Of a stretch of DNA of 64,000 nt, positions 7,118 to 34,840 are shown piece by piece. Source of the DNA: Escherichia coli (GTDB taxonomy: Bacteria; Pseudomonadota; Gammaproteobacteria; Enterobacterales; Enterobacteriaceae). Within the stretch, counting starts at the first letter, position 1, and every line of letters starts with the position of its first letter. The notes under the pieces are model-generated. The model was not told the origin of the DNA and made no database searches. It saw only the letters and a program-made list of their open reading frames with translations. The position numbers and the translations under genes were made by a program. The DNA is taken from assembly GCF_024502345.1 (NCBI RefSeq), contig NZ_JALDNN010000001.1, one strand, 5' to 3'.

Positions 7118-7204
7118 GCCCGGATGGTGGAATCGGTAGACACAAGGGATTTAAAATCCCTCGGCGTTCGCGCTGTGTGGGTTCAAGTCCCACTCCGGGT
7201 ACCA
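7118..7204 (+). tRNA. leuZ: tRNA-Leu (anticodon UAA), long variable arm; 3' half is the integration site of the element
   Basis: 87 nt ending CCA; anticodon loop gatttTAAaatcc; T-stem carries a compensatory U-A pair relative to the displaced copy at 34590-34645. Confidence 0.9.
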
Positions 7205-7276
7205 TGGGAAACATCAGAATAATCAAAGCAATAAGCAGTGTCGTTAAACCACCTCCGGGTGGTTTTTTTGTGCCTG
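7149..7276 (+). repeat. attL: direct repeat covering the 3' 56 nt of tRNA-Leu plus terminator
   Basis: About 128 bp, roughly 95% identical to 34590-34719. Confidence 0.85.
7246..7269 (+). terminator. Rho-independent terminator after leuZ
   Basis: Hairpin accacctccgggtggt followed by T7. Confidence 0.7.
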
Positions 7277-7445
7277 AAATTCATGTCCTGTGCATATCCT
7301 GTGCTCACGGGGTGCGATGAGCTGCAATCTCCAGCCTGGCAATGACGAATCGAACGTGTCGCCTCCAGCATAGAGAACCAGGCCGCTTTGCCTGTTTTCC
7401 GGTACGCTTCCGGGAAGGGGGGCCTGCTGAGCAAGCTGTAATGCT

Positions 7446-8186
7446 CTAGCCACCCTGAGTACAAAGTTGCTTAATTCGTGCAATCACCTCATCTCTGTAC
7501 TTCTGGTGTCCGCGCATAGCCCGTGGATGGGCAATTCTGAAACAGATTGCATTACCTGTTTTGAACTCCCATAGCTTCCCCGGAATGACTGAAGAAGTCT
7601 CATAGCCGCCCAGCTCAGTAAGCACCTGTTTTATGATGTAGTCTGTTCTCCGGGCTCCAGATGCAAAGATGATGAAATCAGGCTCAAGGTGTTTAATTTG
7701 TACCGCCAGCAGCTTCAGCGAGGCTAATATGACTTCCTGCACTTCATTTTGAGGGCGATTGAGAGGGGTCAGTCCGTCGTAATCCCACGCCAGTAGATTG
7801 GCATACACGATTGCCTGGGGAAGAATATTAAGCTCCCGGGCCAGCCTGAAATGATATTGCGTGAAGCGGCTACGTGATTTGAGGTTGGTGGTGCCATCAT
7901 TTTGTACCGGAAGATGATTCCTGTAACGATCTACAGCTTCTTCAACCACCTGCCCGATGGTGACGTCAGGTATAAGTCCCAACACCCGTGATATCGTATT
8001 CTTACCATTCAGCGTATTCCAGCCTGCGGTTTCACGTCCAACCAGCATGATTTTTATCGGTGAATGCCAGTATTCTTCAAACGGCACGGGTAAAAAGACG
8101 CCTGAGTATTTATCTTCATTCAGGTTAAATGACTGGGCGTCAACTTCCTGTAATATCCGTTTGTACGCGTCTAATAGCTTTTCCAT
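7446..8186 (-). CDS. Uracil-DNA glycosylase superfamily protein (UDG-like)
   Basis: 246 aa; KIMLVGRETAG resembles the family-4 UDG motif-A region and FRIAHPRAM resembles motif B (HPS-like). Confidence 0.5.
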   Translation of the reverse strand: MEKLLDAYKRILQEVDAQSFNLNEDKYSGVFLPVPFEEYWHSPIKIMLVGRETAGWNTLNGKNTISRVLGLIPDVTIGQVVEEAVDRYRNHLPVQNDGTTNLKSRSRFTQYHFRLARELNILPQAIVYANLLAWDYDGLTPLNRPQNEVQEVILASLKLLAVQIKHLEPDFIIFASGARRTDYIIKQVLTELGGYETSSVIPGKLWEFKTGNAICFRIAHPRAMRGHQKYRDEVIARIKQLCTQGG

Positions 8187-8266
8187 TCTTCAATCCTGCC
8201 CCGTAATAAAAACACCTTCAGATATATATTATCTCCATGATATCAATCAGATACATGAGGATAAAT

Positions 8267-9484
8267 ATGCAAAAATCCTTCCGATTCACCAATTCATCCA
8301 TCAAAGCCCTTCCGGCAAACACAGATACCCGATCTACAGAGCTTGAGGTATCAGATACCGAGGTCATAGGCCTCAAATGTCTCTCAGGTCGAACGGGTAA
8401 CAAACGTTTCCTCCTGCGCTACACATTCCACGGTACCAAAAAAAGTATCAGTATTGGCAGATTCCCTGAAATCGATGTGGGGACAGCCCGTCAGATAGCT
8501 CGCCGTCATAAGGAGGCGATTGCACTTGGAAATGACCCCAAGGCAGAGCGCGATAATTATCGTGCGATGCCAACGCTTAGTGAGTTTTTTCACCTGACCT
8601 ATGTTCCGTTCATCAAGCGCCATAAAAAGTCCTGGGATAAGGATGTTCAGCGTTTCACGCAATACATTGAACCTCGTCTGGGGAAGATACGTTACTGCGA
8701 TCTCAGGGCCAGAGAGATACAACAGGTGCTGTTTGACATGCTGGAGGGGCGTATTCACGGGCAGCAATATGCGCCGTCTACCTGTAACAGAGCCCTTGCT
8801 ATTCTGAAAACGATGGGGCGTTATGCGTTGCGACAGGATGTGCTGGAAAAGAATGAAGCCGATAAGATCCCTTTACTGAAAGAGAATAATCAGCGGACGC
8901 GCTTTTTTGATGCTGATGAGATCAGGCGCATTCTTGACGCTGCTACCCAATATCCCAACAAAGCTGCCGGGGGATTGATAGCCATGTTGTTGTTAACCGG
9001 TACACGCAAATCAGAAATGCTTAATGTCAGGCATGAACATATCGACCGGGCCAATCGTACTCTGTTCATTCCTTATACAAAAAATGGTCGCAGTCGGACG
9101 GTATATCTAAGCGATGCAGCATTATCGATTATTGATGCTATCCCACGAGTTGGCAGTAATCCGTATCTGTTCGCCATTAAGGATAATGGAAAACCGATAT
9201 CGGAACCCCGATGGGCATATGAAAAAATACTGGCACAGTGCGGTATAGACAAGAATGAAGTCTGTTTTCACACCACACGTCATTCTGTTGCCTCTTTACT
9301 GGTTTCGAGTGGTCAATTCAGCCTGTATGACGTTAAAGCACAACTGGCGCATGCCAGTATTCAAAGTACGGAGCGCTACGCGAAATTGACACCAGAGCGT
9401 ATGCGTCAGACCGGGCAGGGCGTAACTGACCTTCTTTTGAACACCGTTACTGCCGGTAACAATGATGATTTTAGCACCCCTTGA
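8267..9484 (+). CDS. Tyrosine recombinase / integrase (P4-like); alternative upstream ATGs at 8237 and 8255
   Basis: Catalytic signature TGTRKSE (R), HTTRHSVAS (HxxR), ERYAKL (Y); RBS gagga before ATG 8267; adjacent to tRNA att site. Confidence 0.85.
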   Translation: MQKSFRFTNSSIKALPANTDTRSTELEVSDTEVIGLKCLSGRTGNKRFLLRYTFHGTKKSISIGRFPEIDVGTARQIARRHKEAIALGNDPKAERDNYRAMPTLSEFFHLTYVPFIKRHKKSWDKDVQRFTQYIEPRLGKIRYCDLRAREIQQVLFDMLEGRIHGQQYAPSTCNRALAILKTMGRYALRQDVLEKNEADKIPLLKENNQRTRFFDADEIRRILDAATQYPNKAAGGLIAMLLLTGTRKSEMLNVRHEHIDRANRTLFIPYTKNGRSRTVYLSDAALSIIDAIPRVGSNPYLFAIKDNGKPISEPRWAYEKILAQCGIDKNEVCFHTTRHSVASLLVSSGQFSLYDVKAQLAHASIQSTERYAKLTPERMRQTGQGVTDLLLNTVTAGNNDDFSTP

Positions 9485-9493
9485 ACGTGGAGT

Positions 9494-9751
9494 ATGAGTA
9501 TGCCGTTAAAATGTCCTAAGTGTGGTAGCCGAAATACAGTGACAGAAACTGCCGGAAAGATAGCAGAAGTGACTCGCGATGACCGGTTCCTGACATCGAC
9601 ATCCGGTTATATTAGCCCGGAGCAATTACCAGAATTGCTTAAAGAAATCATCAGGGCGATACAACGTCTCTTTAGATTCCTTGAACAGCGTGAAAGGAAT
9701 AATGCGCCAGTGCTGATCTGCAAGGATTGTGGATATTATGAAAGAATATAG
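9494..9751 (+). CDS. Small zinc-ribbon protein (CxxC...CxxC), function unknown
   Basis: 85 aa with CPKCGS ... CKDCGY; translationally coupled to the integrase gene. Confidence 0.5.
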   Translation: MSMPLKCPKCGSRNTVTETAGKIAEVTRDDRFLTSTSGYISPEQLPELLKEIIRAIQRLFRFLEQRERNNAPVLICKDCGYYERI

Positions 9752-9796
9752 ATGACCACTGAAGGCAATTCCAGATTCTTTAGCCTGTCTATGTAA

Positions 9797-10847: not shown

Positions 10848-11282
10848 ATGCAAACCCAATATGCCTTAAAACAGGCAGGATTAACTCTGCCTGTTACTAA
10901 AGAATTTCAGCAGCATATTACTACTCTTCTGGCAAATCAGGTTTTACAAAAAATAACTGAGGCAGTGGTTATTAATTTCCGCGATCCGGACTACAGTGCA
11001 GAATCCGGGGGCTTTCATCCCGTTGAAATACGGTTTATCCGTAAGAATAATGAATGGTATTTTGATTATGTCACAGATTTTAGTTATATGGGGCGTGTCT
11101 ACCCTGAGCTGGAAAAAGAAATTGATTTTTGCTGGTCGGGGAATTATGTCTTCCATTATCTGATTGGGGATATTTCACTGGCAGCAGAGAGGAATGAACT
11201 CTGGTCTCTGTGGGAGCGTAATTTTATGGAGTATCTCTCTATGGGGATTTACCGGGTAACGGTAACTGTGGAAAGTTGTTGA
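10848..11282 (+). CDS. Hypothetical protein (element cargo)
   Basis: 144-aa ORF. Confidence 0.45.
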   Translation: MQTQYALKQAGLTLPVTKEFQQHITTLLANQVLQKITEAVVINFRDPDYSAESGGFHPVEIRFIRKNNEWYFDYVTDFSYMGRVYPELEKEIDFCWSGNYVFHYLIGDISLAAERNELWSLWERNFMEYLSMGIYRVTVTVESC

Positions 11283-11892: not shown

Positions 11893-12711
11893 CTACTCAA
11901 ATGATATTAATTTAGGTGCGACAGTGTTTTTATGACATGTTAAATTCGCAAGATCAATAATATCATGAAACAATTTTATGTCGTCGTCAGTGAGCTCTAC
12001 GTCTGGATCAGCTAAATCGGCACAGGTAACATTTAACCAGTGTGTTAATGAATCAATCCTGTTTGAAGTAATATATTCAGTGTGACCAATATCCCACTTC
12101 CAGTTGATCACCCGAGCAGGTCTGAATCTCACCTCCCGAACCCCAATTGGCGTTACTGACTCTACGAGAGGGTATATCGTGTTAAGTACTTTATCATGTT
12201 CACTGTAGATATTTAAATGCCCCATTTTTGAACCGTAAGCCATTTTCATTATGTTCTCTGTATAACTTGTTATTGGGGTGGCTCCGGCCATAGAGATTGT
12301 TAAGAGAATATTATCATTTTTAATATAGGGTAATGTATTGTTTATTAATCGAGTCCCTAAAGAATGACCCATTATGATCACATTACGCTTTTCTTTAACG
12401 TATATCTCGTTTATTACGTGTGCTAATTTTTCTCTGTTATTAACTGCTGCTTTCGTTGCATTATACCAGGCCTGACGCGCTTTAAATGGAATGGAGATTG
12501 ATGACAATAAAGGAGATGTTCTCAGGGGGAAGAGAGTATATAACCCCCACTTGTTCGCTATGTCAGAACTTAATATGGATAGTAGATTTGCCGATTCCCA
12601 TTTATAGTATCTGACATCAAGGCCACACCCTGCTTTAATTCGGTTAAACCATGATATATCATTTTCGGTCAGAAACCCTGATACAACAAGAAGAACCGGG
12701 CATTTTTTCAT
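11893..12711 (-). CDS. Alpha/beta-hydrolase-fold protein (GxSxG nucleophile elbow)
   Basis: 272 aa; IIMGHSLGTR serine-hydrolase motif. Confidence 0.5.
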   Translation of the reverse strand: MKKCPVLLVVSGFLTENDISWFNRIKAGCGLDVRYYKWESANLLSILSSDIANKWGLYTLFPLRTSPLLSSISIPFKARQAWYNATKAAVNNREKLAHVINEIYVKEKRNVIIMGHSLGTRLINNTLPYIKNDNILLTISMAGATPITSYTENIMKMAYGSKMGHLNIYSEHDKVLNTIYPLVESVTPIGVREVRFRPARVINWKWDIGHTEYITSNRIDSLTHWLNVTCADLADPDVELTDDDIKLFHDIIDLANLTCHKNTVAPKLISFE

Positions 12712-12772: not shown

Positions 12773-13675
12773 TTACGGGGCGTTACTTGGCTGGGTGTAA
12801 CGTTTCAGTGCGGATTGTATATCTTCAGCAAGTTGTTGACGGATTGAGGCCGGTTGTATTACTTCGACATCCGGTATCCAGTATTTCATTAAAGGCATTA
12901 TCTGATCTGTGTGTGTTACACGTGATATCACCAGTAAATCGCCAGACCGGGAAGTATGAATTATTTCCTGTCCTGGCAATAGATGACGGTGGGTAAACCA
13001 CGGAGCAACATGTGCGGAAACTGAAATAAGAACTTCGATAAGGTCTTCGCTATACCAGATACCATCTGTCTTTTCTATTTTTTCATTAATTTCGGGGATT
13101 ATCCTGAAAGAGATATTACTCATGCAAACGTCTTTGACAGATGAGATAACAAAGCTTTTTAATGTACTGTCATGGGCGGCAGCGAGATACCACAATCCGT
13201 TGTCATTAACCAGCCTGTATGGCTCAACAGCCCGAAACTCTTTATCTTTGTAATTAAAATTTACTTTCTTCTGTGACAGGATGGCATCGGATAATACATT
13301 CAGAATTGACATGAATGATCCGCAGTTTTCGTATGGACGTTGTTTTATCAGAAACGGGTTGTTTTTCGTGTTACCTAACAAAATACTCAGTAGTCTGTCA
13401 TCCCAGCGAGGGAACAGCCCTTCAATACCCAGGATGCGCGTGAAATGACGTAAATCAGCATTGCTGCGTTGACCGAGAACACCGTCAGACAGGCGATAGC
13501 GACCATTTTGTCGAATCAGATTAAGATAGGACAGGCGCTGAGTAAGATCACGACGGATAGTTTTTTCGCAAACGTTAAATTCCTCAGATAACTCCCGGAC
13601 GGCTAGTGACTCACCATTGTTCAGGCGAGTTAATATCAATCCGAGTCGATATCCAAGTTTATCGTGCTTACCCAT
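12773..13675 (-). CDS. HTH + WYL-domain-type transcriptional regulator (YafY-like)
   Basis: 300 aa; N-terminal DeoR-like HTH ([21 protein letters not shown]), central region consistent with a WYL domain. Confidence 0.5.
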
Positions 13676-18055: not shown

Positions 18056-19186
18056 TCATTTTTTCGTGTCATAACTTTCTATGACCTGAGAAACCACTGC
18101 GTGCGATGTCGCTGCATTGTGAAAAGCGTAGCGACGGGTCGCCGTGAGTGAATGGTGATTTAGCAGATGGGAAGCGATTGCAATATCCCCGGTCGCCTGT
18201 AGTACCCGGGTGGCAAAGGTACGGCGCAGGTCATGCATCCGCAGGTTATCAATGTTGGCATCCCGACAAATACGGGCAAAGGTTGCACGCGGATATGCCA
18301 GAGGGCGGGCATTGTCGGTTAGTTGTGGAAAAATGTAAGTTTTGCTGAGCATCAGGTCTTGCTGGCACTGGACAACTGCAATGGCTGGAGGTGCAAGTGG
18401 GCAGGTGAAAGGGTGTCCGGACTTTGTATCAGGCAGTATGAGTTGATGCATATCCGGGTGCCAGTACTCCCATTTCAGGGTACATACCTCACCAATACGC
18501 ATCCCCGTATAAAGAGCAAGCAATATAGAATCAGCTGCCGGTGTTTGCAGCGCTGTTGCCGCGTCAATAAAGCGCGGGATTTCTGTCGCTGATAGTGTGC
18601 GATAGCGAATGTTATTTTCTTTCAGATAGCGGACATGTGACATCGGGGAATGTGTGATCCATCCAGCACGTACTGCCAGAGAGCATATTTTGGACAATAT
18701 TGCGAGGATACGGTTTACTGTTGACGGACGTAATTTTTCCCGTAAGCCAGCAGCATATTGTTCTAGTTCCCCTGCCGTGATGTCGCGAAGTTGCCGCTTG
18801 CCCCAGAACGGGCGAACGTAGAGGTTGAGTTTTGACAACTCTGACTGAGGACTCTTTTTATACAACTGCAAATCCGGTAGCCACAGGTCATTGATGGCCT
18901 GTTCCACAGTGAATCGACGGGACTGAACCGCAAGACGATTTTTATCAGCAAGCAGTTTCATCACATGCTGACGGGCATCCTCAACGCAGAGCTGAGGGAA
19001 CTGACCCAGGGTTTCATATATACGCTGATTGTTTATAGTGGCACGAAAGGCCAGCGTGATCCGATTGGGATACACCAGAGCACGCAGGTTTTGGCAGTGA
19101 ATATCACGGTATTCCTGACAACCCGTGAGGGGATGTGGAAGTTGGTGAAGTGATTTGTTGCTGAAACGCAGATCCAGAATAGGCAT
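18056..19186 (-). CDS. Second tyrosine recombinase (XerC/D-like integrase)
   Basis: 376 aa; RIGEV (R), HDLRRTFAT (HxxR), TRRYAFH (Y). Confidence 0.8.
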   Translation of the reverse strand: MPILDLRFSNKSLHQLPHPLTGCQEYRDIHCQNLRALVYPNRITLAFRATINNQRIYETLGQFPQLCVEDARQHVMKLLADKNRLAVQSRRFTVEQAINDLWLPDLQLYKKSPQSELSKLNLYVRPFWGKRQLRDITAGELEQYAAGLREKLRPSTVNRILAILSKICSLAVRAGWITHSPMSHVRYLKENNIRYRTLSATEIPRFIDAATALQTPAADSILLALYTGMRIGEVCTLKWEYWHPDMHQLILPDTKSGHPFTCPLAPPAIAVVQCQQDLMLSKTYIFPQLTDNARPLAYPRATFARICRDANIDNLRMHDLRRTFATRVLQATGDIAIASHLLNHHSLTATRRYAFHNAATSHAVVSQVIESYDTKK

Positions 19187-22505: not shown

Positions 22506-24029
22506 ATGAACGACAAAATCAGTCAGGACACGATCAACAAAGCCCTGTGGGCCGCGTGTGATACGTTCCGTGGCACCATCAGTGCTGATACCTATAAAGA
22601 CTTTATCCTTACCATGCTATTCCTTAAGTACATTTCGGATGTCTGGCAGGATCACTACGACGAATATAAAGTGCAATATGGTGATGAGCCGGAACTGATT
22701 GAAGCGATGATGGCGAACGAGCGCTTCGTGTTGCCGAAAAGCGCCAGTTTCTATGCGTTGTACGAGCGACGTCATGAGCCGGGCAACGGTGAGCGTATCG
22801 ATCAGGCGCTGCATGCGATTGAAGAAGCCAACGGCACCAAACTGAAAGATGCCGGGAAAAGTGTCTTCCAGGATATTTCGTTTAACACTGACCGTCTGGG
22901 CGAAGAAAAACAGAAGAACACCATCCTGCGTCAGTTGCTGGAAGACTTTGCCGGTGAAGATCTTAACCTGAAGCCAAGCCGTGTCGGTACGCTGGACGTT
23001 ATCGGTAATGCTTACGAATATCTGATCAAAAACTTTGCTGCCAGCGGTGGGCAGAAAGCCGGGGAATTCTATACCCCACCGGAAGTTTCGGATCTCATCG
23101 CTGAACTGCTTGATCCTCAACCCGGTGATACAATCTGCGACCCGGCCTGTGGTTCCGGTTCGTTGCTAATGAAGTGCGGGCGTAAAATTGTCTCAGGACA
23201 TGATAGCCGCAACTATGCGTTGTTCGGTCAGGAAGCGATTGGCTCCACGTGGTCGCTGGCGAAAATGAACATGTTCCTGCACGGCGAAGATAACCACAAA
23301 ATCGAGTGGGGCGATACCATTCGTAACCCGAAGTTGTTGGATAAAAACGGCGACCTGATGCTGTTTGATATCGTGACCGCAAACCCACCGTTCAGCCTGG
23401 ATAAGTGGGGCCATGACGAGGCCGAGAATGATAAGTTTGGGCGTTTCCGTCGCGGTGTACCGCCGAAGACTAAAGGGGATTACGCCTTTATCTCGCATAT
23501 GATCGAAACCCTGAAACCGGGAACGGGTCGTATGGGCGTAGTGGTGCCGCACGGTGTGCTGTTCCGTGGCTCCAGCGAAGGCAAAATTCGTCAGAAGCTG
23601 ATTGATGAAAACCTACTCGATGCGGTGATTGGCCTGCCTGAAAAACTGTTCTACGGTACGGGTATTCCTGCTGCAATTCTGATTTTTAAAAAGCAGAAAG
23701 TGGATGACAAGGTGCTGTTTATCGACGCCAGCCGTGAATTTAAGGCAGGTAAAAACCAGAACCAGCTCAGCGCAGAAAACATCGAGAAAATCGTCAAGAC
23801 CTACCGTGATGGCGATAGCGTCGAGAAATATGCCTACCTTGCCAGCCTGAAGGAGATTCAGGACAACGATTACAACCTCAATATTCCGCGCTATGTCGAT
23901 ACCTTTGAAGAAGAAGAAGATATCGATTTACTTGCCGTTCGTGCTGAGCGGGAGGAATTGAAAGCGGAACTGGCGAAATTGGAAACGCAGATGGCGGGTT
24001 ATCTGGAGGAGCTGGGTTATGGTGCCTAA
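22506..24029 (+). CDS. hsdM: Type I restriction-modification N6-adenine DNA methyltransferase subunit
   Basis: 507 aa; SAM-binding DPACGSGSLL and catalytic NPPF (VTANPPFSL). Confidence 0.9.
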   Translation: MNDKISQDTINKALWAACDTFRGTISADTYKDFILTMLFLKYISDVWQDHYDEYKVQYGDEPELIEAMMANERFVLPKSASFYALYERRHEPGNGERIDQALHAIEEANGTKLKDAGKSVFQDISFNTDRLGEEKQKNTILRQLLEDFAGEDLNLKPSRVGTLDVIGNAYEYLIKNFAASGGQKAGEFYTPPEVSDLIAELLDPQPGDTICDPACGSGSLLMKCGRKIVSGHDSRNYALFGQEAIGSTWSLAKMNMFLHGEDNHKIEWGDTIRNPKLLDKNGDLMLFDIVTANPPFSLDKWGHDEAENDKFGRFRRGVPPKTKGDYAFISHMIETLKPGTGRMGVVVPHGVLFRGSSEGKIRQKLIDENLLDAVIGLPEKLFYGTGIPAAILIFKKQKVDDKVLFIDASREFKAGKNQNQLSAENIEKIVKTYRDGDSVEKYAYLASLKEIQDNDYNLNIPRYVDTFEEEEDIDLLAVRAEREELKAELAKLETQMAGYLEELGYGA

Positions 24030-25266
24030 GGGGTGGAAACGAGTACCGATTAAGGATGTGTGCGAGTCTATAATCGATTGCGTAAATAAAACAGCTCCAG
24101 TTGTTGATTATGAAACTCCCTTTAAGATGATTCGTACCACGAATGTACGTAATGGAAGGGTTAATACTGAAGACGTCAGATATGTGACTGAAGACACTTA
24201 CCTGCAATGGGTTCGACGCGGAAAACCGCAAGTAGGTGATATCATCTTTACACGTGAAGCACCTGTAGGAGAAGCAGGTGTCCTGCAAGATGCTGAAGGT
24301 ATTTTCCTCGGGCAAAGAACGATGATGTATCGAGCTGATACCTGCCTTTCAGATAACTATTTCTTGTTCTACTCGTTATCAAGTCCCTTCTGCCAGAAAC
24401 AAATTGAAGATTTTAGCAATGGCGGTACTGTAGCTCATATGAGAGTTCCAGATTGCGGTGAGATATTGATCAATCTACCGCCTTTCCTCGAACAAAAGAA
24501 AATCGCCCAAATCCTGTCAACCTGGGATAAGGCGATTTCGGTGACGGAAAAGCTTCTCACCAACAGCCAGCAGCAGAAAAAAGCCCTGATGCAGCAATTG
24601 CTTACTGGGAAGAAACGCTTGCTGGATGAGAATGGGACAAGGTTTTCTGAAACTTGGAAATTATATGCCTTATCGAAATTATTTCAGAGAGTTACGACTA
24701 AAAACAATGGAAAAAGCAACAATGTTGTAACCATTTCTGGACAACATGGTTTGATTAAACAGGAAGACTTTTTCAAGAAAACAGTCGCATCAGATACCCT
24801 TGATGGTTATTTCTTATTAAAAAAAGGGCAGTTTGCTTACAATAAAAGTTACTCTAATGGTTATCCGATGGGTGCAATAAAAAGATTAAATCGATATCCA
24901 GAGGGAGTAGTAACAACTCTGTATATATGTTTTGAACTTACTACACCCAAAAAATCATGTGGTGACTATTGGGAGCATTATTTTGAGTCAGGGCTTTTGA
25001 ATAACAGTTTGTCTCAAATTGCTCATGAAGGTGGACGGGCTCATGGCTTGCTAAATGTAAAACCTTCGGACTTCTTTTCATTAAAAGTTGCGGTTCCTGG
25101 CTTTGAAGAGCAACAAAAAATCGCATTAGTTCTGTCCGCTGCCGACACCGAAATCTCCACACTGGAGAAAAAACTCGCCTGCCTGAAAGACGAGAAGAAA
25201 GCCTTGATGCAGCAACTGCTGACCGGGAAACGTCGGGTGAAAGTGGATGAGGCGGTTGCCGTATGA
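24019..25266 (+). CDS. hsdS: Type I restriction-modification specificity subunit
   Basis: 415 aa; two target-recognition halves each followed by the conserved repeat KKALMQQLLTGK(K/R)R; overlaps hsdM stop. Confidence 0.88.
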   Translation: MVPKGWKRVPIKDVCESIIDCVNKTAPVVDYETPFKMIRTTNVRNGRVNTEDVRYVTEDTYLQWVRRGKPQVGDIIFTREAPVGEAGVLQDAEGIFLGQRTMMYRADTCLSDNYFLFYSLSSPFCQKQIEDFSNGGTVAHMRVPDCGEILINLPPFLEQKKIAQILSTWDKAISVTEKLLTNSQQQKKALMQQLLTGKKRLLDENGTRFSETWKLYALSKLFQRVTTKNNGKSNNVVTISGQHGLIKQEDFFKKTVASDTLDGYFLLKKGQFAYNKSYSNGYPMGAIKRLNRYPEGVVTTLYICFELTTPKKSCGDYWEHYFESGLLNNSLSQIAHEGGRAHGLLNVKPSDFFSLKVAVPGFEEQQKIALVLSAADTEISTLEKKLACLKDEKKALMQQLLTGKRRVKVDEAVAV

Positions 25267-25946
25267 AACTGACGAAAAGCGGTCCACTGACTGACCGGGA
25301 AATCGACTGGCTGGAAGAAATATTAATGAAGTATGGAATGGATGATTCTGTACTCTGTTTCTCTGAGCTGGATGGATTGCTGACGGCGATTTTATCAGGT
25401 CCAAATATGGTTTCACCCAATATCTGGCTGAGTGCTATTTGGGGAGGAGGCGATTATCATCCGAAATGGTCATCTGAGAGAGAGATGGAGCGTTTTGTCA
25501 GTCTGTGTTTTCAGCATATGAACGATATCGCTGGTTGCCTTTATGACGCCCCTGAACTGTTTGAGCCGATTTTCAATGAGCGTGAGGTAAAGGGGGAAAA
25601 ATATACCATTGTGGAAGAGTGGTGTTTTGGTTATATGAAAGGAAAGTCACTGGATGACTGGTCTGGTCTTCCCGGTGAGTTACGGCCTTCTCTGGAAGTG
25701 ATCGCTCTTCATGGCGTGGAGAAGAATTTTCCTGTACTTGAGAAAATGACCGGAGAGCAGTTTGAGAAAAGTATTTCCCTTATTCAGCCTGCTGCACTGG
25801 CACTTTATCAGTACTGGTTGTCAGTGAGAATGTCAGAGGCATCATCCCGGCCTGTTCCAGTGAAGGGGGCAGAAAACATGCCCGGGCGAAATGACCCGTG
25901 TCCGTGTGGCAGCGGTAAAAAATTTAAGAAGTGCTGTCTGCATTGA
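25263..25946 (+). CDS. YecA-like (UPF0149) protein with C-terminal SEC-C metal-binding motif, embedded between hsdS and hsdR
   Basis: 227 aa; C-terminus [20 protein letters not shown]; alignable along its length with chromosomal YecA at 34841-35506. Confidence 0.75.
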   Translation: MKLTKSGPLTDREIDWLEEILMKYGMDDSVLCFSELDGLLTAILSGPNMVSPNIWLSAIWGGGDYHPKWSSEREMERFVSLCFQHMNDIAGCLYDAPELFEPIFNEREVKGEKYTIVEEWCFGYMKGKSLDDWSGLPGELRPSLEVIALHGVEKNFPVLEKMTGEQFEKSISLIQPAALALYQYWLSVRMSEASSRPVPVKGAENMPGRNDPCPCGSGKKFKKCCLH

Positions 25947-25995
25947 TGAATCTTCATGTGACCAGTAGCGAGTAGCGCCAGAAAGAAAAGGATTA

Positions 25996-28900
25996 ATGAT
26001 GAACCAGACGTACACGCCAAAATTCCAGGAAGAATACAGCGCCAAAATTCCGGCACTGACGTTACTGACCAGCCTCGGCTGGACGTTTTTATCTCCGAAA
26101 CAGATTATGGATTACCGGGGCTATAAACAGGATGAGGTGGTGCTGCGTCCGGTTCTGCGTGAAGAGCTGTCGAAGCGTTCCTTTATGGCGGGTGGCAAAA
26201 CCTGCCAGTTATCGGAAAAAGCACTGGATAACCTGATATCACAGGTCTGTTCTCCGGCGCTGAATGAAGGGCTGCTCAAAGCCAATGAACGGATGTATAA
26301 CCATCTGCTCTACGGTATCGCCGTCACGGAGTTTGTCGATGGCAAGAAGGTCAACCCCACCATTGCGCTGATCGACTGGGAACATCCGGAAAATAACCAG
26401 TTCCACTTTACTGAAGAATTTACGGTATTGCGGTCAGGTGGTGTTGAAACCCGGAGGCCAGATATTGTCTGCTTTGTTAATGGTATCCCGCTGGCTGTTA
26501 TTGAAGCGAAAAGCCCGGCTGGTCATGGCAAGAAAGGGCCAACCATTGACGAGGGGATATCCCAGAGTATCCGCAACCAGTTCAACGATGAAATCCCGCA
26601 GCTGTTTGTCTACAGCCAGTTATTACTTTCGATTAACGGTCATGACGGGCGCTACGGTACATGCCATACGCCAATGAAATTCTGGGCGGCATGGCGCGAA
26701 GAAGATATTACCGATGCGCAGATGTATGCTCTGCGCAACCATCCTTTATCGACTGAACAAATTCATGCGTTGTTTGATCATCGTCCATCAGCCGATCTCA
26801 ACTGGTACCAACAGTTAATCGCCGCCGGTGAACTGGCTGTCAGTGGACAGGACAAACTGCTCATCAGCCTGCTTTCGCCGGAACGTCTGCTGGAGATGAC
26901 CCGCTTCTTCACTCTGTTTGATAAAAAGACCGGGAAAATTGTCGCCCGCTATCAGCAGGTGTTCGGTATTAAAAGACTGCTGGAGCGCATCAGTACCCGC
27001 AGACCCGATGGGGGCAGGGAAGGTGGTGTTATCTGGCATACCACCGGCTCTGGCAAATCGTACACCATGGTGTTCCTCAGCAAGGCGCTGATTCTTCATG
27101 ACAGCCTGAAGCGGTGTCGTATCGTGGTGGTGACGGACCGTATCGATCTTGAAGAACAGCTCAGCAGTACCTTTGCATCCGGCGGCGAGTTGGCCGGGAA
27201 AAAAGACAAAGCCAATGCAATGGCGACATCCGGGCAGATGCTGGCGAAACAGATTGGCTCCGGTAAAGAACGCATCATTTTCACCCTAATCCAGAAATTT
27301 AATTCAGCGACAAAACTTCCTGAATGCGTCAATACCAGCCCCGATATCATCGTTCTGGTTGATGAAGGACACCGTAGCCAGGGTGGTGAGAACCATGTGC
27401 GAATGAAACTGGCACTGCCGAACGCCGCCTTTGTGGCATTTACTGGTACGCCATTGCTAAAAGAAGATAAGACCACCAATAAATTCGGACCGATTGTCCA
27501 CGCTTATACCATGCAGCGAGCGGTAGAAGATAAAGCCGTTACACCTTTGCTGTATGAAGAACGTATTCCCGACCTTGAGGTTAACGATCGGGCAATAGAT
27601 GCCTGGTTTGATCGTATTACCGATGGGTTAAGCGAAGCGCAAAAAGCCGACCTGAAGCGTAAATATGCCCGTAAAGGTGAGGTTTATAGTGCAGATGATC
27701 GCATCCGTCTGATCGCACTCGATATCGCCACGCACTTCTCGAAGAATATTGATGAGGGACTGAAAGGCCAGCTTGCCTGCGACAGCAAGATTTCCGCCAT
27801 CAAATATAAAAAGTATCTTGATGAAGCCGGGTTGTTTGAGTCAGCTGTAGTTATCAGCCCGCCGGATACCCGGGAAGGGAATACCGAAGTGGATGAAAGC
27901 AAACTGCCGGAAGTGACGAAATGGTGGAAGGATAATGTCGGCACGCAGGATGAGTCTGTGTATACCCGTAATGTCATCAGTCGTTTCGATACCGATGAGA
28001 AGCTCAAATTGCTGATAGTCGTTGATAAACTGCTCACCGGGTTTGATGAGCCGAAGAATACCGTGCTGTATATCGACAAGCCGCTTAAGTCCCACAACCT
28101 TATCCAGGCGATTGCGCGGGTGAACCGACTGCATCCACTAAAAAAGTTCGGTCTGCTGATTGATTATCGCGGTATTCTGGCTGAGCTGGACACGACTATC
28201 GGCAAATATCAGGACCTCGCCTCCCGAACTCAGGGCGGATACGATATCAAAGATATTGACGGGCTGTACAGCGCCATGAGCTCTGAATACAAGCGCCTGC
28301 CGCATCTGTATAACCAGCTGTGGGCCATATTTGCCGGTGTTAAAAACAAAAATGATACTGAGCAGTTACGTGCGGTACTGGTGCCTAAAATGGAAGAACG
28401 TGACGGAGAGATGGTCGATATCCATCAGAAAACCCGTGATGATTTCTTCGAGGCGTTAACGGCCTTTGCCGGATGCCTGAAAGTGGCACTGCAGTCCGCT
28501 ACCTTCTTCACCGACAAGAGCTTTACGGAACAAGACCGAAATCTCTATAAAGAAACCGTAAAACAGATGTCCAGCCTGCGCCAGTGGGCGATGCAGGTAA
28601 GTGGAGAGCAGGTCAATTATGACGACTACGCTGAGCAGGTGAAAAAACTGCTGGATAAGCATGTCACCGGCGTTGAAGTTCGTGAACCGGATGGCGTGTA
28701 TGAAGTCGGTAAAATGGGCAAGAGCGAAAAGCCCGAAGAGTGGGACAACAATAAAACCCGCAATGAAACCGACATCATTAAAACCCGTGTGACAAAGATG
28801 ATTGAGCAGGAATTGCGTGATGACCCGTATGCTCAGGAGGCATTTTCAAAACTCCTGCGTATGGCTATCGAAGAGGCTGAAAAACTGTTTGACCATCCGC

Positions 28901-29283
28901 TGAAACAGTACCTTTTGTTCCGTGAATTTGAAGAACAGGTTGAAGCCCGTAAGCTCAGCGATATCCCGGATGCACTGGCGGTAAACAAGCATGCTCAGGC
29001 GTATTACGGTGTATTTAAAAAAGAGCTACCTGAGGTTTTTGCGGTAAACGACGTTCAGGTGCAGGATAAGTGGACGAAGCTGGCTTTTGAAGTGGACAAC
29101 ATTATCGTCAAAGCGGTGGCAGAAAACTCCCTGAACCCCCAGGACATTGAGAAAGTCGTTAAGACAAGTCTGCTACCACTGCTGTTTACGGCCTGCCGGG
29201 AAATTGGTGCCGGAATGAATCAGGTTAACCGTATTGTTGAAACCATCATCCAGATACTGCGCGTTGGTTTGATGAAATCATGA
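25996..29283 (+). CDS. hsdR: Type I restriction enzyme R subunit (nuclease/helicase)
   Basis: 1095 aa; helicase motif I TTGSGKS, motif II DEGHRSQ, N-terminal nuclease region. Confidence 0.9.
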   Translation: MMNQTYTPKFQEEYSAKIPALTLLTSLGWTFLSPKQIMDYRGYKQDEVVLRPVLREELSKRSFMAGGKTCQLSEKALDNLISQVCSPALNEGLLKANERMYNHLLYGIAVTEFVDGKKVNPTIALIDWEHPENNQFHFTEEFTVLRSGGVETRRPDIVCFVNGIPLAVIEAKSPAGHGKKGPTIDEGISQSIRNQFNDEIPQLFVYSQLLLSINGHDGRYGTCHTPMKFWAAWREEDITDAQMYALRNHPLSTEQIHALFDHRPSADLNWYQQLIAAGELAVSGQDKLLISLLSPERLLEMTRFFTLFDKKTGKIVARYQQVFGIKRLLERISTRRPDGGREGGVIWHTTGSGKSYTMVFLSKALILHDSLKRCRIVVVTDRIDLEEQLSSTFASGGELAGKKDKANAMATSGQMLAKQIGSGKERIIFTLIQKFNSATKLPECVNTSPDIIVLVDEGHRSQGGENHVRMKLALPNAAFVAFTGTPLLKEDKTTNKFGPIVHAYTMQRAVEDKAVTPLLYEERIPDLEVNDRAIDAWFDRITDGLSEAQKADLKRKYARKGEVYSADDRIRLIALDIATHFSKNIDEGLKGQLACDSKISAIKYKKYLDEAGLFESAVVISPPDTREGNTEVDESKLPEVTKWWKDNVGTQDESVYTRNVISRFDTDEKLKLLIVVDKLLTGFDEPKNTVLYIDKPLKSHNLIQAIARVNRLHPLKKFGLLIDYRGILAELDTTIGKYQDLASRTQGGYDIKDIDGLYSAMSSEYKRLPHLYNQLWAIFAGVKNKNDTEQLRAVLVPKMEERDGEMVDIHQKTRDDFFEALTAFAGCLKVALQSATFFTDKSFTEQDRNLYKETVKQMSSLRQWAMQVSGEQVNYDDYAEQVKKLLDKHVTGVEVREPDGVYEVGKMGKSEKPEEWDNNKTRNETDIIKTRVTKMIEQELRDDPYAQEAFSKLLRMAIEEAEKLFDHPLKQYLLFREFEEQVEARKLSDIPDALAVNKHAQAYYGVFKKELPEVFAVNDVQVQDKWTKLAFEVDNIIVKAVAENSLNPQDIEKVVKTSLLPLLFTACREIGAGMNQVNRIVETIIQILRVGLMKS

Positions 29284-30035
29284 GTGAAAAAGAATCGCCA
29301 TCAATGAAAGCGTTACGCATTGTCTATGGTGATGAGGTCATCGTCGTACAGTGTGTTCCGCGTCAGGTCGTAAAGGGCAGGGTGCTCATTAAGGTTTATC
29401 CGGACTGCCGGGTTGTGGCCTCTGTACCGCCTGAAACACCGGAGCACGAGGTATTGTCTGCGCTGAAAAAACGTGGGCGCTGGATATACCAGCAACTGCG
29501 TGATTTCAGGGAGCAACAGATACACATTGTTCCGCGTCAGTATGTCAGCGGAGAAAGCCATTATTATCTCGGTAAGCAATATCAGTTGAAAGTGACAGAA
29601 GACGCTACTGTGCCGCAACGAGTGAAAATGTTGCGTGGACGTCTGGAAGTGACTGTCAGACACAAATCGGCAGAAAAGATTAAAGCCTTGCTGGCTGAAT
29701 GGTATCGGGAACGTGCCAGAGATGTTTTTCAGCGCAGGCTTGATTTACTGATTCCGCAGACCCTTTGGGTCAGTGAGCGTCCTCCGATACGTCTGCGGGC
29801 GATGCAAACGCAATGGGGCAACTGTTCAGCAAAAGGCTGTCTGACCCTGAATCCATGGCTGGTTAAGGCATCTTCAGAATGTATCGATTATGTTTTGCTA
29901 CATGAGTTATGCCATGTGGCTGAGCACAACCACAGCGAGGAGTTTTACCGTCTGATGGGACAGGTTATGCCGGGCTGGGAAAAGGTTAAGAAGCGACTGG
30001 ATGGTATGGCTGGGATGTTGTTGGCAGATATGTAA
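29280..30035 (+). CDS. DUF45/YgjP-like predicted zinc metallohydrolase (M48/WLM-like)
   Basis: 251 aa; HELCHVAEHNHSEEF metal-binding signature; start overlaps hsdR stop. Confidence 0.7.
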   Translation: MSEKESPSMKALRIVYGDEVIVVQCVPRQVVKGRVLIKVYPDCRVVASVPPETPEHEVLSALKKRGRWIYQQLRDFREQQIHIVPRQYVSGESHYYLGKQYQLKVTEDATVPQRVKMLRGRLEVTVRHKSAEKIKALLAEWYRERARDVFQRRLDLLIPQTLWVSERPPIRLRAMQTQWGNCSAKGCLTLNPWLVKASSECIDYVLLHELCHVAEHNHSEEFYRLMGQVMPGWEKVKKRLDGMAGMLLADM

Positions 30036-30093
30036 CTTATCAATATGAGTTCTTAAGAGTTTGGTCAGTCTCGTTAATGCAGGGAGTATAATA

Positions 30094-31932
30094 ATGAGTA
30101 AGTTAGATAATAAAATTGAAGCACGCCATCGTAATTTGTTTGATGTTCTAAATGCGCAAAAATATACCGTTGATTACTTTCAGCGCGAGTATAGCTGGGG
30201 TGAGAAACATATTGAAGAGTTGGTTACAGACTTAACATCTGCGTTTCTCAATGAATACACAGTCGGTGATTCTCGGGAGCAGGGTGAAAACTACAATAAT
30301 TATTACTTAGGACCATTTGTTGTGAGTAGTAAAGATGGAAAGCGGAGTATTATTGATGGTCAGCAACGACTGACTTCATTAACTTTATTTCTAATTTACC
30401 TCCATAATCTTCAGAAAGAACTTAAATATGAAGAGAAAATAGAATCAATGATTTTCTCCGAGCTACGTGGCAGCAAATCATTCAATATAGTAGTTGAAGA
30501 CAGAATTCCTTGCATGGAAGCATTGTTTAATTTTGGTAGCTATAGTTTAGTTGATGGGGATGATGAGTCAACCCATAACATGGTGGAGAGATATCAGAAT
30601 ATCACAGATGCTTTTCCTGATGAGTTAAAAGGTCAGGCTTTTCCTTTTTTTATCGACTGGCTTAAGTATAACGTTATTATGGTTGAGATAGTCGCCTATT
30701 CAGATGAAAACGCATATACCATCTTTGAGACTATGAATGACCGAGGATTGAATCTTACTCCGTCCGAAATGCTTAAAGGTTTTTTACTTTCACGTTTTCA
30801 TCAGGGAGATAAACGCCAAAAGGCAAATGAACTCTGGAAAAAAGCGATGATGGATTTAAAAAGCTATGACAAAGATGAAGACCAACGTTTTTTCCAGTCA
30901 TGGTTGCGTGCTCAATATGCTGATACAATACGCCCGGGTAAAGCTGGTTCAAAAAATGAAGACTTTGAAAAAATAGGTACGCGTTTTCATAGCTGGGTTA
31001 GAGATAATCTTCAGGCGGTGGGATTGGACCCAGATAATGGTGAGACATTCGAACGATTTATACAAAAAAACTTTTTGTTTTATTTGAATGCCTATACACA
31101 AATACTGAATGCTGAGAGAGTATTAACGCACCAACTGGAATATGTATTTTATATCCACCATTGGGGTATTGCACCTACTTTAAGTTTTCCTTTGATGTTG
31201 GCTCCATTAAATGTAGGTGACAGTCCTGAGGCTGTGATAGCCAAAATAAACCTAGTGGCTCGCTATATTGAAACGTTTGTTGTTCGTCGTTCTGTTAATT
31301 TCCGAAAATTCTCTGCCAGTTCTATTCGTTACACAATGTACAGTCTTGTTAAAGAGATTCGTGGTAAAAGTTTTGAAGAATTAAAAGATTTATTATCTAA
31401 GAAGTTATCCGAAATGCCAGATACTTTTGCAGGAATGGAAGAGTTTCGTCTCCATGGTCAAAACTATCGTTTTGTGAAGTTTTTGCTTTCTCGTATAACT
31501 GCGTGGGTTGAGCAACAAGCCGGAATGAGTACAACCTTCATTACATATTATCAGCCAGAACACGGTAAGCCATTTGAAGTCGAGCATATTTGGGCCGATA
31601 AATATGAACGTTACTCTGATGAGTTTGAACAAGAGCACGAATTTAACAATTACAGAAATCGCTTAGGTGATTTGGTTTTATTACCTAGAGGCTCAAACCA
31701 GTCATATGGTGATTTGTGTTACGATCAAAAGCAACCTCATTACATCAAAGAGAATCTCCTGGCTAAATCGTTATGCCCATTGGCATATATGAATAACCCT
31801 AATTTCAATCAGTTGAGAAATGTATTCGGATTGCCTTTCAAACCACATGATTCATTTAAAAAACAAGATGTCGATGAACGACAGTCTTTGTATAAAATAA
31901 TTTGTGAGAATATTTGGGGCCATAATTTATAG
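30094..31932 (+). CDS. DUF262 + DUF1524 protein (GmrSD-family-like, predicted type IV restriction endonuclease)
   Basis: N-terminal IIDGQQRLTSL (DUF262 DGQQR motif), C-terminal FEVEHIWA His-Me finger-like (DUF1524); RBS ggag before ATG 30094. Confidence 0.7.
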   Translation: MSKLDNKIEARHRNLFDVLNAQKYTVDYFQREYSWGEKHIEELVTDLTSAFLNEYTVGDSREQGENYNNYYLGPFVVSSKDGKRSIIDGQQRLTSLTLFLIYLHNLQKELKYEEKIESMIFSELRGSKSFNIVVEDRIPCMEALFNFGSYSLVDGDDESTHNMVERYQNITDAFPDELKGQAFPFFIDWLKYNVIMVEIVAYSDENAYTIFETMNDRGLNLTPSEMLKGFLLSRFHQGDKRQKANELWKKAMMDLKSYDKDEDQRFFQSWLRAQYADTIRPGKAGSKNEDFEKIGTRFHSWVRDNLQAVGLDPDNGETFERFIQKNFLFYLNAYTQILNAERVLTHQLEYVFYIHHWGIAPTLSFPLMLAPLNVGDSPEAVIAKINLVARYIETFVVRRSVNFRKFSASSIRYTMYSLVKEIRGKSFEELKDLLSKKLSEMPDTFAGMEEFRLHGQNYRFVKFLLSRITAWVEQQAGMSTTFITYYQPEHGKPFEVEHIWADKYERYSDEFEQEHEFNNYRNRLGDLVLLPRGSNQSYGDLCYDQKQPHYIKENLLAKSLCPLAYMNNPNFNQLRNVFGLPFKPHDSFKKQDVDERQSLYKIICENIWGHNL

Positions 31933-31990
31933 CAAAGTTGGGGTGTTAATTAATGTGTAATGGCATCATGATTTTTAAAAGGAGGTTGAA

Positions 31991-33118
31991 TTGCGTTCTG
32001 AAACGTTTTTTGTCAAATTTATTGAACAACTGAAAGGTATTTCGGTTGAGGATGATGTTGAATTCAATTTTTTTGAATTGGGTGGTTCCGGATATCTCGA
32101 AAATCCAACTACGGATTTGATGGCTTTGTTTATGGGAGCCCAGAAAATGGTGCCGCCATGGTTGCTCAAAGCATTGCTATGTTGCCTAGATGATTCCCTC
32201 GATGTTGATGAAATTGATTTCACTTCTCTGGAGCTAATGAGAGAGGCCCGAACAGAAGATGGGAAATATATTGATATTCTTATCAGACATGATGAATTCA
32301 TTATAGGTATTGAGCATAAAGTTCTGGCTGATACATATAATCCTTTTCCCAGCTATGTAAGTCTCATTGATAGTTACGGCGGCAACAATCAAAAACTATT
32401 TCGCTGTATATTAAAGCCTGACGGTAACAGCGCTAAAGGCGTAGACGGTTGGCAACTGATCAATTATTCACTGCTGCTGGAAACCGCCATTCGACGTCTG
32501 GGGTTAGAGATGATGAATCAAGAGTTCAGCAAGTGGACTTTTTTTTATCAGGAGTTTTTAAGTCATCTTAAAAAATTGAGTGAGGTTAGTATGGATAAGG
32601 TATCTGATAAAAATGTGGAGTTTGTCACTGAAAATTTCACAGCTTTGATAAAATCGGTTCAATTGCTGGAAATGTACCAAAATGCTATCACCGAGGAAGC
32701 TAAATCGGTTGTCTCAGAGGTATTGCCTGATATTCATATTGCAACAGGTATTAATAACTGGAAGGGTTACTATAAAGCAATTCATCTGATGCCGGGATGC
32801 TGGGGGCAAGGTAAAACAGGAATTACGTTAGTTTATCGCCCTTCAGAGGATGGTCGAGATGAAGCTGAGTTCTATGTATATGGATGGATACATTCAGATG
32901 ATTACCCTGAAGTTAATGCACTAAAAGAAGAAATAAGAGTTGCTTTAAGTGCTGGAGATTTCATTCCAACAGCTAGCCCTGAGGACTATGAAGTATCAAT
33001 TACTGGGAAGGGGAAAGTGCTTGAACTGAGTTTTTGGGGGAATACGAGAAGCAAAAAAGATGCACTGGTTCTTCTTAAGGATATGACTAAGTGGATGGAC
33101 TCAAAAATAAGAACATAA
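31991..33118 (+). CDS. Hypothetical protein with candidate PD-(D/E)xK nuclease motif; TTG start uncertain
   Basis: 375 aa; DILIRHDEFIIGIEHK fits D...ExK; RBS aaaggagg upstream. Confidence 0.4.
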   Translation: MRSETFFVKFIEQLKGISVEDDVEFNFFELGGSGYLENPTTDLMALFMGAQKMVPPWLLKALLCCLDDSLDVDEIDFTSLELMREARTEDGKYIDILIRHDEFIIGIEHKVLADTYNPFPSYVSLIDSYGGNNQKLFRCILKPDGNSAKGVDGWQLINYSLLLETAIRRLGLEMMNQEFSKWTFFYQEFLSHLKKLSEVSMDKVSDKNVEFVTENFTALIKSVQLLEMYQNAITEEAKSVVSEVLPDIHIATGINNWKGYYKAIHLMPGCWGQGKTGITLVYRPSEDGRDEAEFYVYGWIHSDDYPEVNALKEEIRVALSAGDFIPTASPEDYEVSITGKGKVLELSFWGNTRSKKDALVLLKDMTKWMDSKIRT

Positions 33119-33222
33119 AGTAATATGACTGAGTGATGACGATCTTTTTTAAATTGTGGATTATTAGGCTGGTAATTGAAGCGCCGAATAGACAGATATT
33201 AGAATAAAAGGAGAATATTCAA

Positions 33223-34404
33223 ATGATTTATCAGTGTGATACTTGCAGTAGAACGACTTTTGAGGTTAATTGTCCCTGGTGTAGTGGAGTTTCGCCTGTA
33301 AAAACGTCTGCATGGGGTTCAGCATCATCGACCTCACAAGCAATAGATATACAACGTATGACACCATTGAATCCATCGTTTTATCCAGAGTTTCAGTATC
33401 GTTCAAAGGGTGTTCTAAAAGATCTATTTGGGAAAAAGAAAGAGCAAACTCAGCTTAATCAATTGCTTGAAAATGTTCTCGAAAAATACTCCAGTTTAAA
33501 AGATCCATATTTTACTAACTTCATTTACACTTCCAGATTCTCACATAATAATAAATCGGAAGCAGATTACTCAACAGATAATGGTACATACTCCGAATTA
33601 CAACTTTTCCGTGAGGTGTTGGTCAGAAAAGGGTTCAATGAGCTTGAAGAGTTACCTGAGCTATTAGATAAATTACTCCTTACCACGTCATTTAACGCTC
33701 TTTATTATGGTTTCGCTAAGGAAGTTAAACGGCATATTAAATCTACACTTACTGAATCCTTGAAGTCATGGATTGAGGAAGCGGGTACCACTTTTAGGGC
33801 AGATCTTTCATTGTTTCTATTCTATATATGGAGCAATAAAATAGAGTTCTCATCAGTAGAGTTCAATGAAAAAGCGGAGGCTACGCCTGGTGTTCCTTTA
33901 GTTTCATTTGATGAAGTTAAAAAATACTTAGCTGTGTGCGAACATATTTATTTTGATATTCTGGTTGATAGATTAGCTACACGGCTCGAACATTTTAACC
34001 CTAACAAATTCGTCACCATGTATTTAGTTGATGCAATGGACGGTTTCCAGTTTGAAGATTTCCTTGTGGAAGTATTCCAGACTATGGGCTATGACGTCAA
34101 AGAAACCAAGAGAACGCAAGATCAGGGGGCAGATCTCTTCGTCACTCGATTTGGTAAGGATATGGTTATTCAGGCGAAAAATTATTCTGGTTCTGTAGGT
34201 AACTCGGCGGTGCAGCAGGTGATCTCTGCTAAAACATTCTATGGTTGTGATGAGGCGATGGTTGTGACTAATTCCTACTTCACTCGCTCTGCGAAAGAGT
34301 TAGCTGAATCAGCCTTGGTACGTCTGATCGACAGGGATGAACTGCAAAAGTATCTGGATGATTACAATCAGAAGATAATTGAAGATTTCCAGTCAAACTC
34401 GTAA
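33223..34404 (+). CDS. Protein with N-terminal zinc ribbon and C-terminal Mrr-type restriction endonuclease catalytic domain
   Basis: 393 aa; CDTCS...CPWCS; C-terminal FEDFLVEVFQTMGY...GADLFV...IQAKNY...VQQVISA matches the Mrr_cat pattern. Confidence 0.6.
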   Translation: MIYQCDTCSRTTFEVNCPWCSGVSPVKTSAWGSASSTSQAIDIQRMTPLNPSFYPEFQYRSKGVLKDLFGKKKEQTQLNQLLENVLEKYSSLKDPYFTNFIYTSRFSHNNKSEADYSTDNGTYSELQLFREVLVRKGFNELEELPELLDKLLLTTSFNALYYGFAKEVKRHIKSTLTESLKSWIEEAGTTFRADLSLFLFYIWSNKIEFSSVEFNEKAEATPGVPLVSFDEVKKYLAVCEHIYFDILVDRLATRLEHFNPNKFVTMYLVDAMDGFQFEDFLVEVFQTMGYDVKETKRTQDQGADLFVTRFGKDMVIQAKNYSGSVGNSAVQQVISAKTFYGCDEAMVVTNSYFTRSAKELAESALVRLIDRDELQKYLDDYNQKIIEDFQSNS

Positions 34405-34589: not shown

Positions 34590-34719
34590 ATTTAAAATCC
34601 CTCGGCGTTCGCGCTGTGCGGGTTCAAGTCCCGCTCCGGGTACCATGGGAAAGATAAGAATAAAATCAAAGCAATAAGCAGTGTCGTGAAACCACCTTCG
34701 GGTGGTTTTTTTGTGCCTG
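34590..34719 (+). repeat. attR: displaced 3' half of tRNA-Leu plus terminator (direct repeat of 7149-7276)
   Basis: Contains tRNA 3' 56 nt ending CCA at 34645, with no 5' half upstream; terminator hairpin at 34691-34712. Confidence 0.85.
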
Positions 34720-34840
34720 CAACTTGTCGTTACACCCTCCTTAATTTTTAATCACCGGCAAAGCCACTCAAAAAGTATCTCTGATACGGACCGGCATGTA
34801 AGATAGGTGCTGGCGAGTTGAGATCCACAAGGAAAAACGT

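Follow-up and report, generated by a model that had tools for sequence, protein, structure and literature searches.

A pipolin at leuZ and its UDG gene

The window, by which we mean the whole stretch of 64,000 nt analysed here, is the uvrC-pgsA-glyW-cysT-leuZ region of Escherichia coli. Two direct repeats of 131 and 133 nt, about 95% identical, bound a 27.4-kb island in this region, and the chromosomal yecA gene begins just beyond it, at 34841 (Table 1). The gene of interest, called UDG (for uracil-DNA glycosylase) in the pipolin literature, lies inside the island because the two att repeats flank it. Its transcription heads towards the tRNA-Leu(UAA) gene, which is on the opposite strand, and its stop codon is 166 nt away from the att repeat. 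This is the placement given in the preliminary description: next to the attachment site and facing the tRNA.

Table 1. Coordinates of the features in the window
Feature	Position	Strand	Basis
tRNA-Leu(UAA), leuZ, integration target	7118..7204	+	ARAGORN; RefSeq annotation of homologous locus
att repeat over the 3' part of tRNA-Leu and its terminator (attL in the preliminary description, attR in the pipolin papers)	7149..7279	+	direct repeat families D3/D4, pairwise alignment
Pipolin UDG core gene, UDG-superfamily glycosylase-like CDS, 246 aa	7446..8186	-	ORF listing, ATG start
Motif B, H220-P221-R222, after strand beta4	7521..7529	-	HMMER alignment to S. tokodaii HPAA
N130, C-terminal end of strand beta2 (126-130 in the model)	7797..7799	-	98% conserved in 111 relatives
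Motif A, G50-R-E52-T-A-G-W56, directly after strand beta1	8019..8039	-	conservation in 111 relatives
Tyrosine recombinase, Arm-DNA-binding and Phage_integrase domains, divergent from and syntenic with the UDG gene	8237..9484	+	Pfam
DUF2787, pipolin core gene	10848..11282	+	Pfam
DUF726-like hydrolase, pipolin core gene	11893..12711	-	Pfam
WYL/WCX regulator, pipolin core gene	12773..13675	-	Pfam
piPolB, primer-independent family B DNA polymerase, longest ORF 887 aa	14430..17093	-	sequence motifs
Second tyrosine recombinase, Phage_integrase and Phage_int_M	18056..19186	-	Pfam
Defence cargo: type I R-M (hsdM, hsdS, yecA-like gene, hsdR), YgjP peptidase, GmrSD, PDDEXK_4/PDC-S26, Mrr-like/PDC-S02	22506..34404	+	Pfam, PADLOC
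Distal att repeat, island end	34590..34722	+	direct repeats, pairwise alignment

The island has all the hallmarks of an enterobacterial pipolin (Redrejo-Rodriguez et al. 2017, PMC5695915; Flament-Simon et al. 2020, PMC7385651; Mateo-Caceres and Redrejo-Rodriguez 2024, PMC11551731). Both features of pipolin membership are present: a piPolB with the KH-X8-KTRG motif, and terminal direct repeats at a Leu-tRNA gene together with tyrosine recombinases. The polymerase ORF contains FDTEY, KEIGNSLYGK, VTTDGF and CKHEVSQLIAMKTRGQ. The last of these is KH-X8-KTRG, the motif that defines primer-independent PolB. Matches to PHROG DNA polymerases are weak. The element does therefore carry the replicative polymerase ascribed to it beforehand. 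Its true start is likely M22 (17030), giving a product of 866 aa, because D59 and E61 then coincide with the published exonuclease mutant D59A/E61A; RefSeq also annotates an 866-aa product in a near-identical genome. In RefSeq the piPolB gene is mostly labelled 'hypothetical protein'.

The DUF2787, DUF726-like and WYL/WCX genes are given as pipolin core genes in PMC11551731. Three small conserved core ORFs lie 3' of the integrase (9494-10775, plus strand), coding for an 85-aa zinc-ribbon protein and for proteins of 123 and 177 aa. All three match solely PHROGs of unknown function, with very strong E-values, presumably because a pipolin was entered there as a prophage. A role in excision or regulation is conceivable for the zinc-ribbon protein. 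A low-GC block (19330-22202, minus strand, GC 0.34-0.38) adjoins the second recombinase. It holds two ORFs of 376 and 411 aa with zero matches in Pfam, NCBIfam, PADLOC and PHROGs, which may be unrecognised cargo or defence genes. Within the type I R-M operon a yecA paralogue (UPF0149 and SEC-C, 227 aa; 25263-25946, plus strand) sits between hsdS and hsdR and shares 57% identity with the chromosomal yecA next to the island (34841-35506, plus strand).

Between the two att copies there are seven substitutions and one 2-nt indel. One pair of substitutions, in the T-stem, is compensatory: GTGTGGG...CCCAC in the working tRNA-Leu versus GTGCGGG...CCCGC in the distal copy. Because these substitutions compensate each other, the 3' half of the functional leuZ appears to be derived from the element, with stem pairing kept. 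Outside the island, two tandem paralogous segments (53824-54333 and 55525-56034, spaced by 1701 nt) are 73-77% identical; we take them to be probably the tar/tap chemoreceptor genes of the flanking chromosome.

The UDG gene is real and conserved. An AGGA Shine-Dalgarno sequence can be read 7 nt 5' of its ATG. Its product matches a protein cluster with 3071 members at 100% identity, 531 of 5426 complete E. coli genomes carry the gene (each time on the chromosome), and dN/dS for its orthologues across enterobacterial genera is 0.07-0.30. The size of the cluster, the number of genomes and the purifying selection rule out a chance ORF. A phage gene is ruled out as well, as no homologue exists among 50,697 phage genomes. 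Homologues are found on 15 plasmids. A promoter scan of the 50-80 bp that separate the UDG and integrase genes revealed no convincing minus-strand promoter; a weak terminator-like hairpin at 7394-7379 is the one signal near the gene. In Enterobacterales the gene is solitary, without an operon partner, and RefSeq labels the product hypothetical.

The gene is already in the literature, since the pipolin papers report it (PMC7385651, PMC5695915, PMC11551731). The published E. coli pipolin gene and the one described here are the same gene, with no differences. It is present in 87 of 92 E. coli pipolins (95%; Table S3 of the published work), where the HHpred best match is Q96YD0, the UDG of Sulfolobus tokodaii. 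The authors also place it at the tRNA-side end of the element, syntenic with a XerC-like recombinase (PMC7385651), and ExplorePipolin draws it in colour as one of the standard features of pipolins. The idea that the gene is unusual cargo has to be given up: it is a near-universal core gene of E. coli pipolins.

Fold, motifs and family of the protein

Searched as a single sequence, the protein has zero matches in Pfam, NCBIfam and PADLOC even at E<=10 (the PADLOC library is older than Brig1-3), and nothing among PDB sequences. Its PHROGs match is solely phrog_29550, a family of unknown function. A profile of close homologues (A1) matched RAD51 in the PDB, which we dismissed as chance.

Structure and deeper profiles are more telling. 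The predicted structure has an alpha/beta/alpha core with a parallel sheet, as in solved UDGs. The best matches in searches with the model are the family-4 UDGs 4zby (S. tokodaii) and 1l9g (T. maritima), with SMUG1 and TDG also among the matches. An exhaustive homologue search retrieved 220 representatives at E<=1e-3 among 1.8 billion, so the family is small. We built a broad profile (A2) from 111 relatives, reaching down to about 23% identity. With HMMER this profile matches the S. tokodaii UDG 4zbx (E 2.9e-5), and H220-P221 is aligned to the HPAA of that enzyme. Individually, 51 of the 111 relatives match PF03167 at E<=1 (best 8.3e-7). Since fold, profile and transitive Pfam matches agree, the pipolin UDG protein belongs to the UDG superfamily. 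The preliminary description had proposed this from motif resemblance and named the lack of any UDG-fold match as the finding that would overturn it; profile and structure searches both gave clear UDG-fold matches.

The conserved residues of the family lie where the active site of a UDG would be. In motif A, G50 is conserved in 100%, E52 in 96% and W56 in 99% of the 111 relatives, and the relatives share the consensus G-[RKQ]-E-[TP]-x-G-W. Two positions past E52 the residue is small or charged, variable and not aromatic. The motif A loop has the lowest confidence of the model (pLDDT ~69). In motif B, H220 and P221 are each 98% conserved. Going by motif order and by the secondary structure of the model, from which the equivalences to UDG families 1-3 are drawn, E52 is the putative water-activating acid. 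By the same comparison N130 would take the position of the base-reading Asn of UDGs, equivalent to N82 of S. tokodaii. Motif A reads G-Q-D-P, G-I-N-P or G-M-N-P in families 1-3 and G-E-[AG]-P-G in family 4. Judged by its residues, the register of the pipolin motif is of the families 1-3 type, with a Glu at the predicted catalytic position, and not of the family-4 type.

It is very improbable that the protein is a true family-4 enzyme (UDGa), the label given to it in the pipolin papers. In favour of that label are the best structural and profile matches (4zby and 1l9g here, Q96YD0 by HHpred in the published work), and the protein does share with 4ZBY and 1L9G the alpha/beta UDG core, the Asn after beta2 and the HP-x motif B. 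We counted the family-4 motif B HP[SA] as present, as H220-P221-[R/S/Q] aligns to the HPAA of 4zbx. However, the superposition with a family-4 UDG covers just about 158 of 246 residues at 14% identity, the pipolin protein adds about 90 residues (an N-terminal helix and an insertion at 59-125), and the single sequence finds no Pfam UDG model even at E<=10. Four Fe-S cysteines define families 4, 5 and UdgX. The pipolin protein has two cysteines, and in the alignment of the 111 relatives only two columns reach at least 30% Cys (C215 with 80% and position 133 with 43%). The motif GE[AG]PG is replaced by the family consensus given above. Because the Fe-S cysteines and GE[AG]PG are absent, the published 'type-4' label denotes the nearest solved structure and not membership.

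Family 1 does not fit either: we rejected a UNG assignment, as the GQDPYH and HPSPLS motifs, with their catalytic Asp and thymine-excluding Tyr, are absent. With SMUG1 and MUG-TDG (families 3 and 2) the protein shares the motif A register G-x-[polar catalytic residue]-P/T and the non-aromatic residue two past the catalytic one. In the SMUG1 and MUG-TDG families a non-aromatic residue there goes with acceptance of 5-substituted uracils. In contrast to these families, which have Asn at the catalytic position, the pipolin protein has Glu, and there is no significant sequence match. Taken by its motifs, the pipolin UDG protein is an unclassified, Fe-S-less branch of the UDG superfamily.

Relatives and their neighbourhoods

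We surveyed genomic contexts at 44 loci, with one genome per species. At identities of at least 79% the order tRNA-Leu, UDG and divergent integrase is invariant (Escherichia, Enterobacter, Citrobacter, Franconibacter, Buttiauxella and Shimwellia). In these Enterobacteriaceae piPolB lies about 6-9 kb from the UDG gene wherever the flank is long enough. For relatives outside the Enterobacteriaceae clade, the retrieved flanks (up to 10 kb on each side) contain no piPolB. The UDG family is not pipolin-specific.

The contexts of these other relatives are diverse. In Proteus the homologue immediately precedes Mrr and a type I R-M system, and in Marinobacter it lies between a DUF6361/helicase cluster and HIT and NOV_C genes. 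Another homologue adjoins DUF4391. On a Kosakonia plasmid the neighbours are IS elements, VapBC and a P-loop NTPase, on a Polaromonas plasmid a UvrD helicase, and in Erwinia a T3SS effector. Many relatives are surrounded by housekeeping or unknown genes only. The contigs of P0121, P0124, P0130 and P0166 are too short for reading the context. In a Pseudescherichia locus (L065, JGI 3300031418, 8255-9738), a homologue with 63% identity sits beside yecA, in the same leuZ-yecA hotspot, and is accompanied by remnants of a phage tail sheath and tube, not by the pipolin core.

To summarise the neighbours, we pooled the 130 genes within 4 kb at 23 loci without the int-UDG-tRNA-Leu order; phmmer, applied locus by locus, is too insensitive. 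The commonest Pfam family in the pool is GmrSD_N (4); next come integrase, WYL/WCX and SMC/AAA_21 ATPases with 3 each, and then type I R-M subunits and HpaII REase. PADLOC models among the pooled neighbours are mad3/mad8, AriA and AbiLi. As raw counts, these suggest a moderate defence-island signal around the relatives.

Within E. coli, too, the UDG gene is detected more often than the polymerase. Of the 5426 complete genomes, 531 have the UDG gene, and megablast finds the piPolB of the window in 295; divergent piPolB variants with amino-acid identities near 70% would escape megablast. The piPolB of O145:H28 strains lies against a truncated 'Arm DNA-binding' integrase fragment. The gap between 531 and 295, together with the O145:H28 arrangement, suggests core deletions or divergent piPolB variants.

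Outside Enterobacterales many of the glycosylases have a partner. In Pseudomonadaceae, Marinobacter, Halomonas, Methylococcales, Pseudoalteromonas and others (L002:5672-6001, L008:5657-5986 and about 16 more loci), the glycosylase gene is preceded by a conserved gene of 109 aa that adjoins its start or overlaps it. The partnered glycosylases are about 55% identical to the E. coli protein. The partner is acidic (pI 4.6) and has no family in Pfam or PHROG. Its AF2 model is confident; structural neighbours are weak and include the immunity protein EsaG, mixed with ATP-grasp subdomains. In several lineages partner and glycosylase form one protein, with the partner domain at its N-terminus (P0068, E 1e-32; P0122, 4e-11), and the fusions in P0121, P0166, P0167 and P0198 show the same G28/F32/R76/G87/W100 pattern as the 109-aa protein. 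The partner is absent throughout the Enterobacterales loci surveyed, including the window.

Such a pair could be read as toxin and immunity protein, with the glycosylase as the toxin half and the acidic partner lost or replaced in the enterobacterial lineage. We consider this improbable. A fusion in cis (P0068, P0122 and others) suits an accessory or sensor domain at least equally, the EsaG match is one of several weak ones, and the E. coli gene is stably kept alone in 531 genomes.

Candidate substrate and role

Fold, remote homology, residue conservation, genomic contexts and purifying selection are what the analysis shows for the pipolin UDG protein; catalysis, substrate class and role are what we infer. 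The predicted glycosylase would take a pyrimidine flipped out of DNA into a pocket lined by motif A (G50-x-E52), by N130 at the end of beta2 and by motif B (H220-P221). Hydrolysis of the N-glycosidic bond would then leave an abasic site. The Asn at position 130, as in uracil-recognising UDGs, points to a U/T-type rather than a 5hmC-type substrate. Acceptance of 5-substituted uracil or thymine is suggested by the position of the thymine-excluding Tyr of family 1, which is small and variable here. Together this suggests a uracil- or thymine-type base as substrate, possibly a 5-substituted or phage-modified uracil.

Brig1, Brig2 and Brig3 are anti-phage DNA glycosylases (PMC11078745; 10.1101/2025.10.29.685425; 10.64898/2026.02.25.707755). 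They resemble the pipolin UDG in being encoded by one gene, in belonging to the UDG superfamily, in their annotation as hypothetical proteins and in their location on mobile or defence islands. The best structural match of Brig1 is likewise 4ZBY. Brig1 relies on E147, placed at the base-reading position by its authors' inference (PMC11078745). Brig3 requires D127 for activity, and this residue probably sits at the base-reading position too. Compared by these reported residues rather than by sequences, the pipolin protein differs from Brig1 and Brig3 in having Asn (N130, 98% conserved). Hence the Brig-type acidic residue for cytosine derivatives is absent from the pipolin UDG family.

The explanation we lean to, tentatively and at somewhat less than even odds, is an active, monofunctional, Fe-S-less glycosylase with a U/T-type substrate. 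It would serve as self-contained surveillance of a defence type rather than as an obligate accessory of piPolB. The role would be DNA surveillance carried at the att-proximal end of the element. The analogy with Brig1-3 and the independence of the family from piPolB are the basis of the defence-type role, to which, taken separately, we also give slightly less than an even chance. The strongest point against a defence role is that in pipolins the UDG gene sits in the conserved core and is not exchangeable defence cargo. A core place next to the integration site would fit a maintenance role better than defence.

As a replication and repair accessory, the glycosylase would clear uracil from pipolin DNA, and piPolB would handle the abasic sites by translesion synthesis or re-priming. 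This repair-toolkit view, also that of the preliminary description, is implicit in the pipolin literature, and besides the core position of the gene it can call on the published finding that piPolB bypasses abasic sites, inserting A. Yet most of the family lives outside pipolins, with no PolB nearby, and even in E. coli 531 genomes have the UDG gene against 295 with a megablast-detectable piPolB. E. coli encodes Ung and Mug, so the host already has such enzymes. Furthermore, the published UDG and piPolB trees are incongruent, with a cophenetic correlation of 0.38 (PMC7385651). The incongruent trees and the non-Enterobacteriaceae relatives without piPolB weaken an obligate link between UDG and polymerase. 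We regard the repair accessory as somewhat unlikely; it is the foremost rival of defence-type surveillance.

A catalytically inert UDG-fold protein that binds DNA or acts as a scaffold, for example by aiding the recombinase at att or as a processivity subunit of the polymerase, has little probability, because relatives without a nearby integrase or polymerase keep the acid, Asn and His-Pro residues at 96-98% conservation, which is not expected of a pure scaffold.

Defence-type surveillance, our preferred reading, can be carried further. The whole family would then consist of Fe-S-less, Brig-like defence glycosylases against DNA with uracil or hypermodified thymidine, such as that of phages with 5-substituted deoxyuridines. 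Outside Enterobacterales they would be gated by the acidic 109-aa domain as an immunity- or sensor-like partner. We put this forward as a speculative extension that is rather unlikely in its full form.

For a genome scan this is an ordinary find: both the core gene and its mobile element are known, and three pipolin papers already call the gene UDG. What is new is modest, namely that the protein lacks the features by which family 4 is defined, that its relatives are not confined to pipolins, and that the acidic partner or fusion domain was previously undescribed. UDG-fold enzymes have lately been shown to be anti-phage effectors. If the defence-glycosylase reading is true, the pipolin core itself, beyond its cargo, has an immune function. 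Two outcomes are at stake: an unrecognised defence glycosylase in about 10% of complete E. coli genomes, or pipolins in which a maker of abasic sites is paired with a polymerase that bypasses them.
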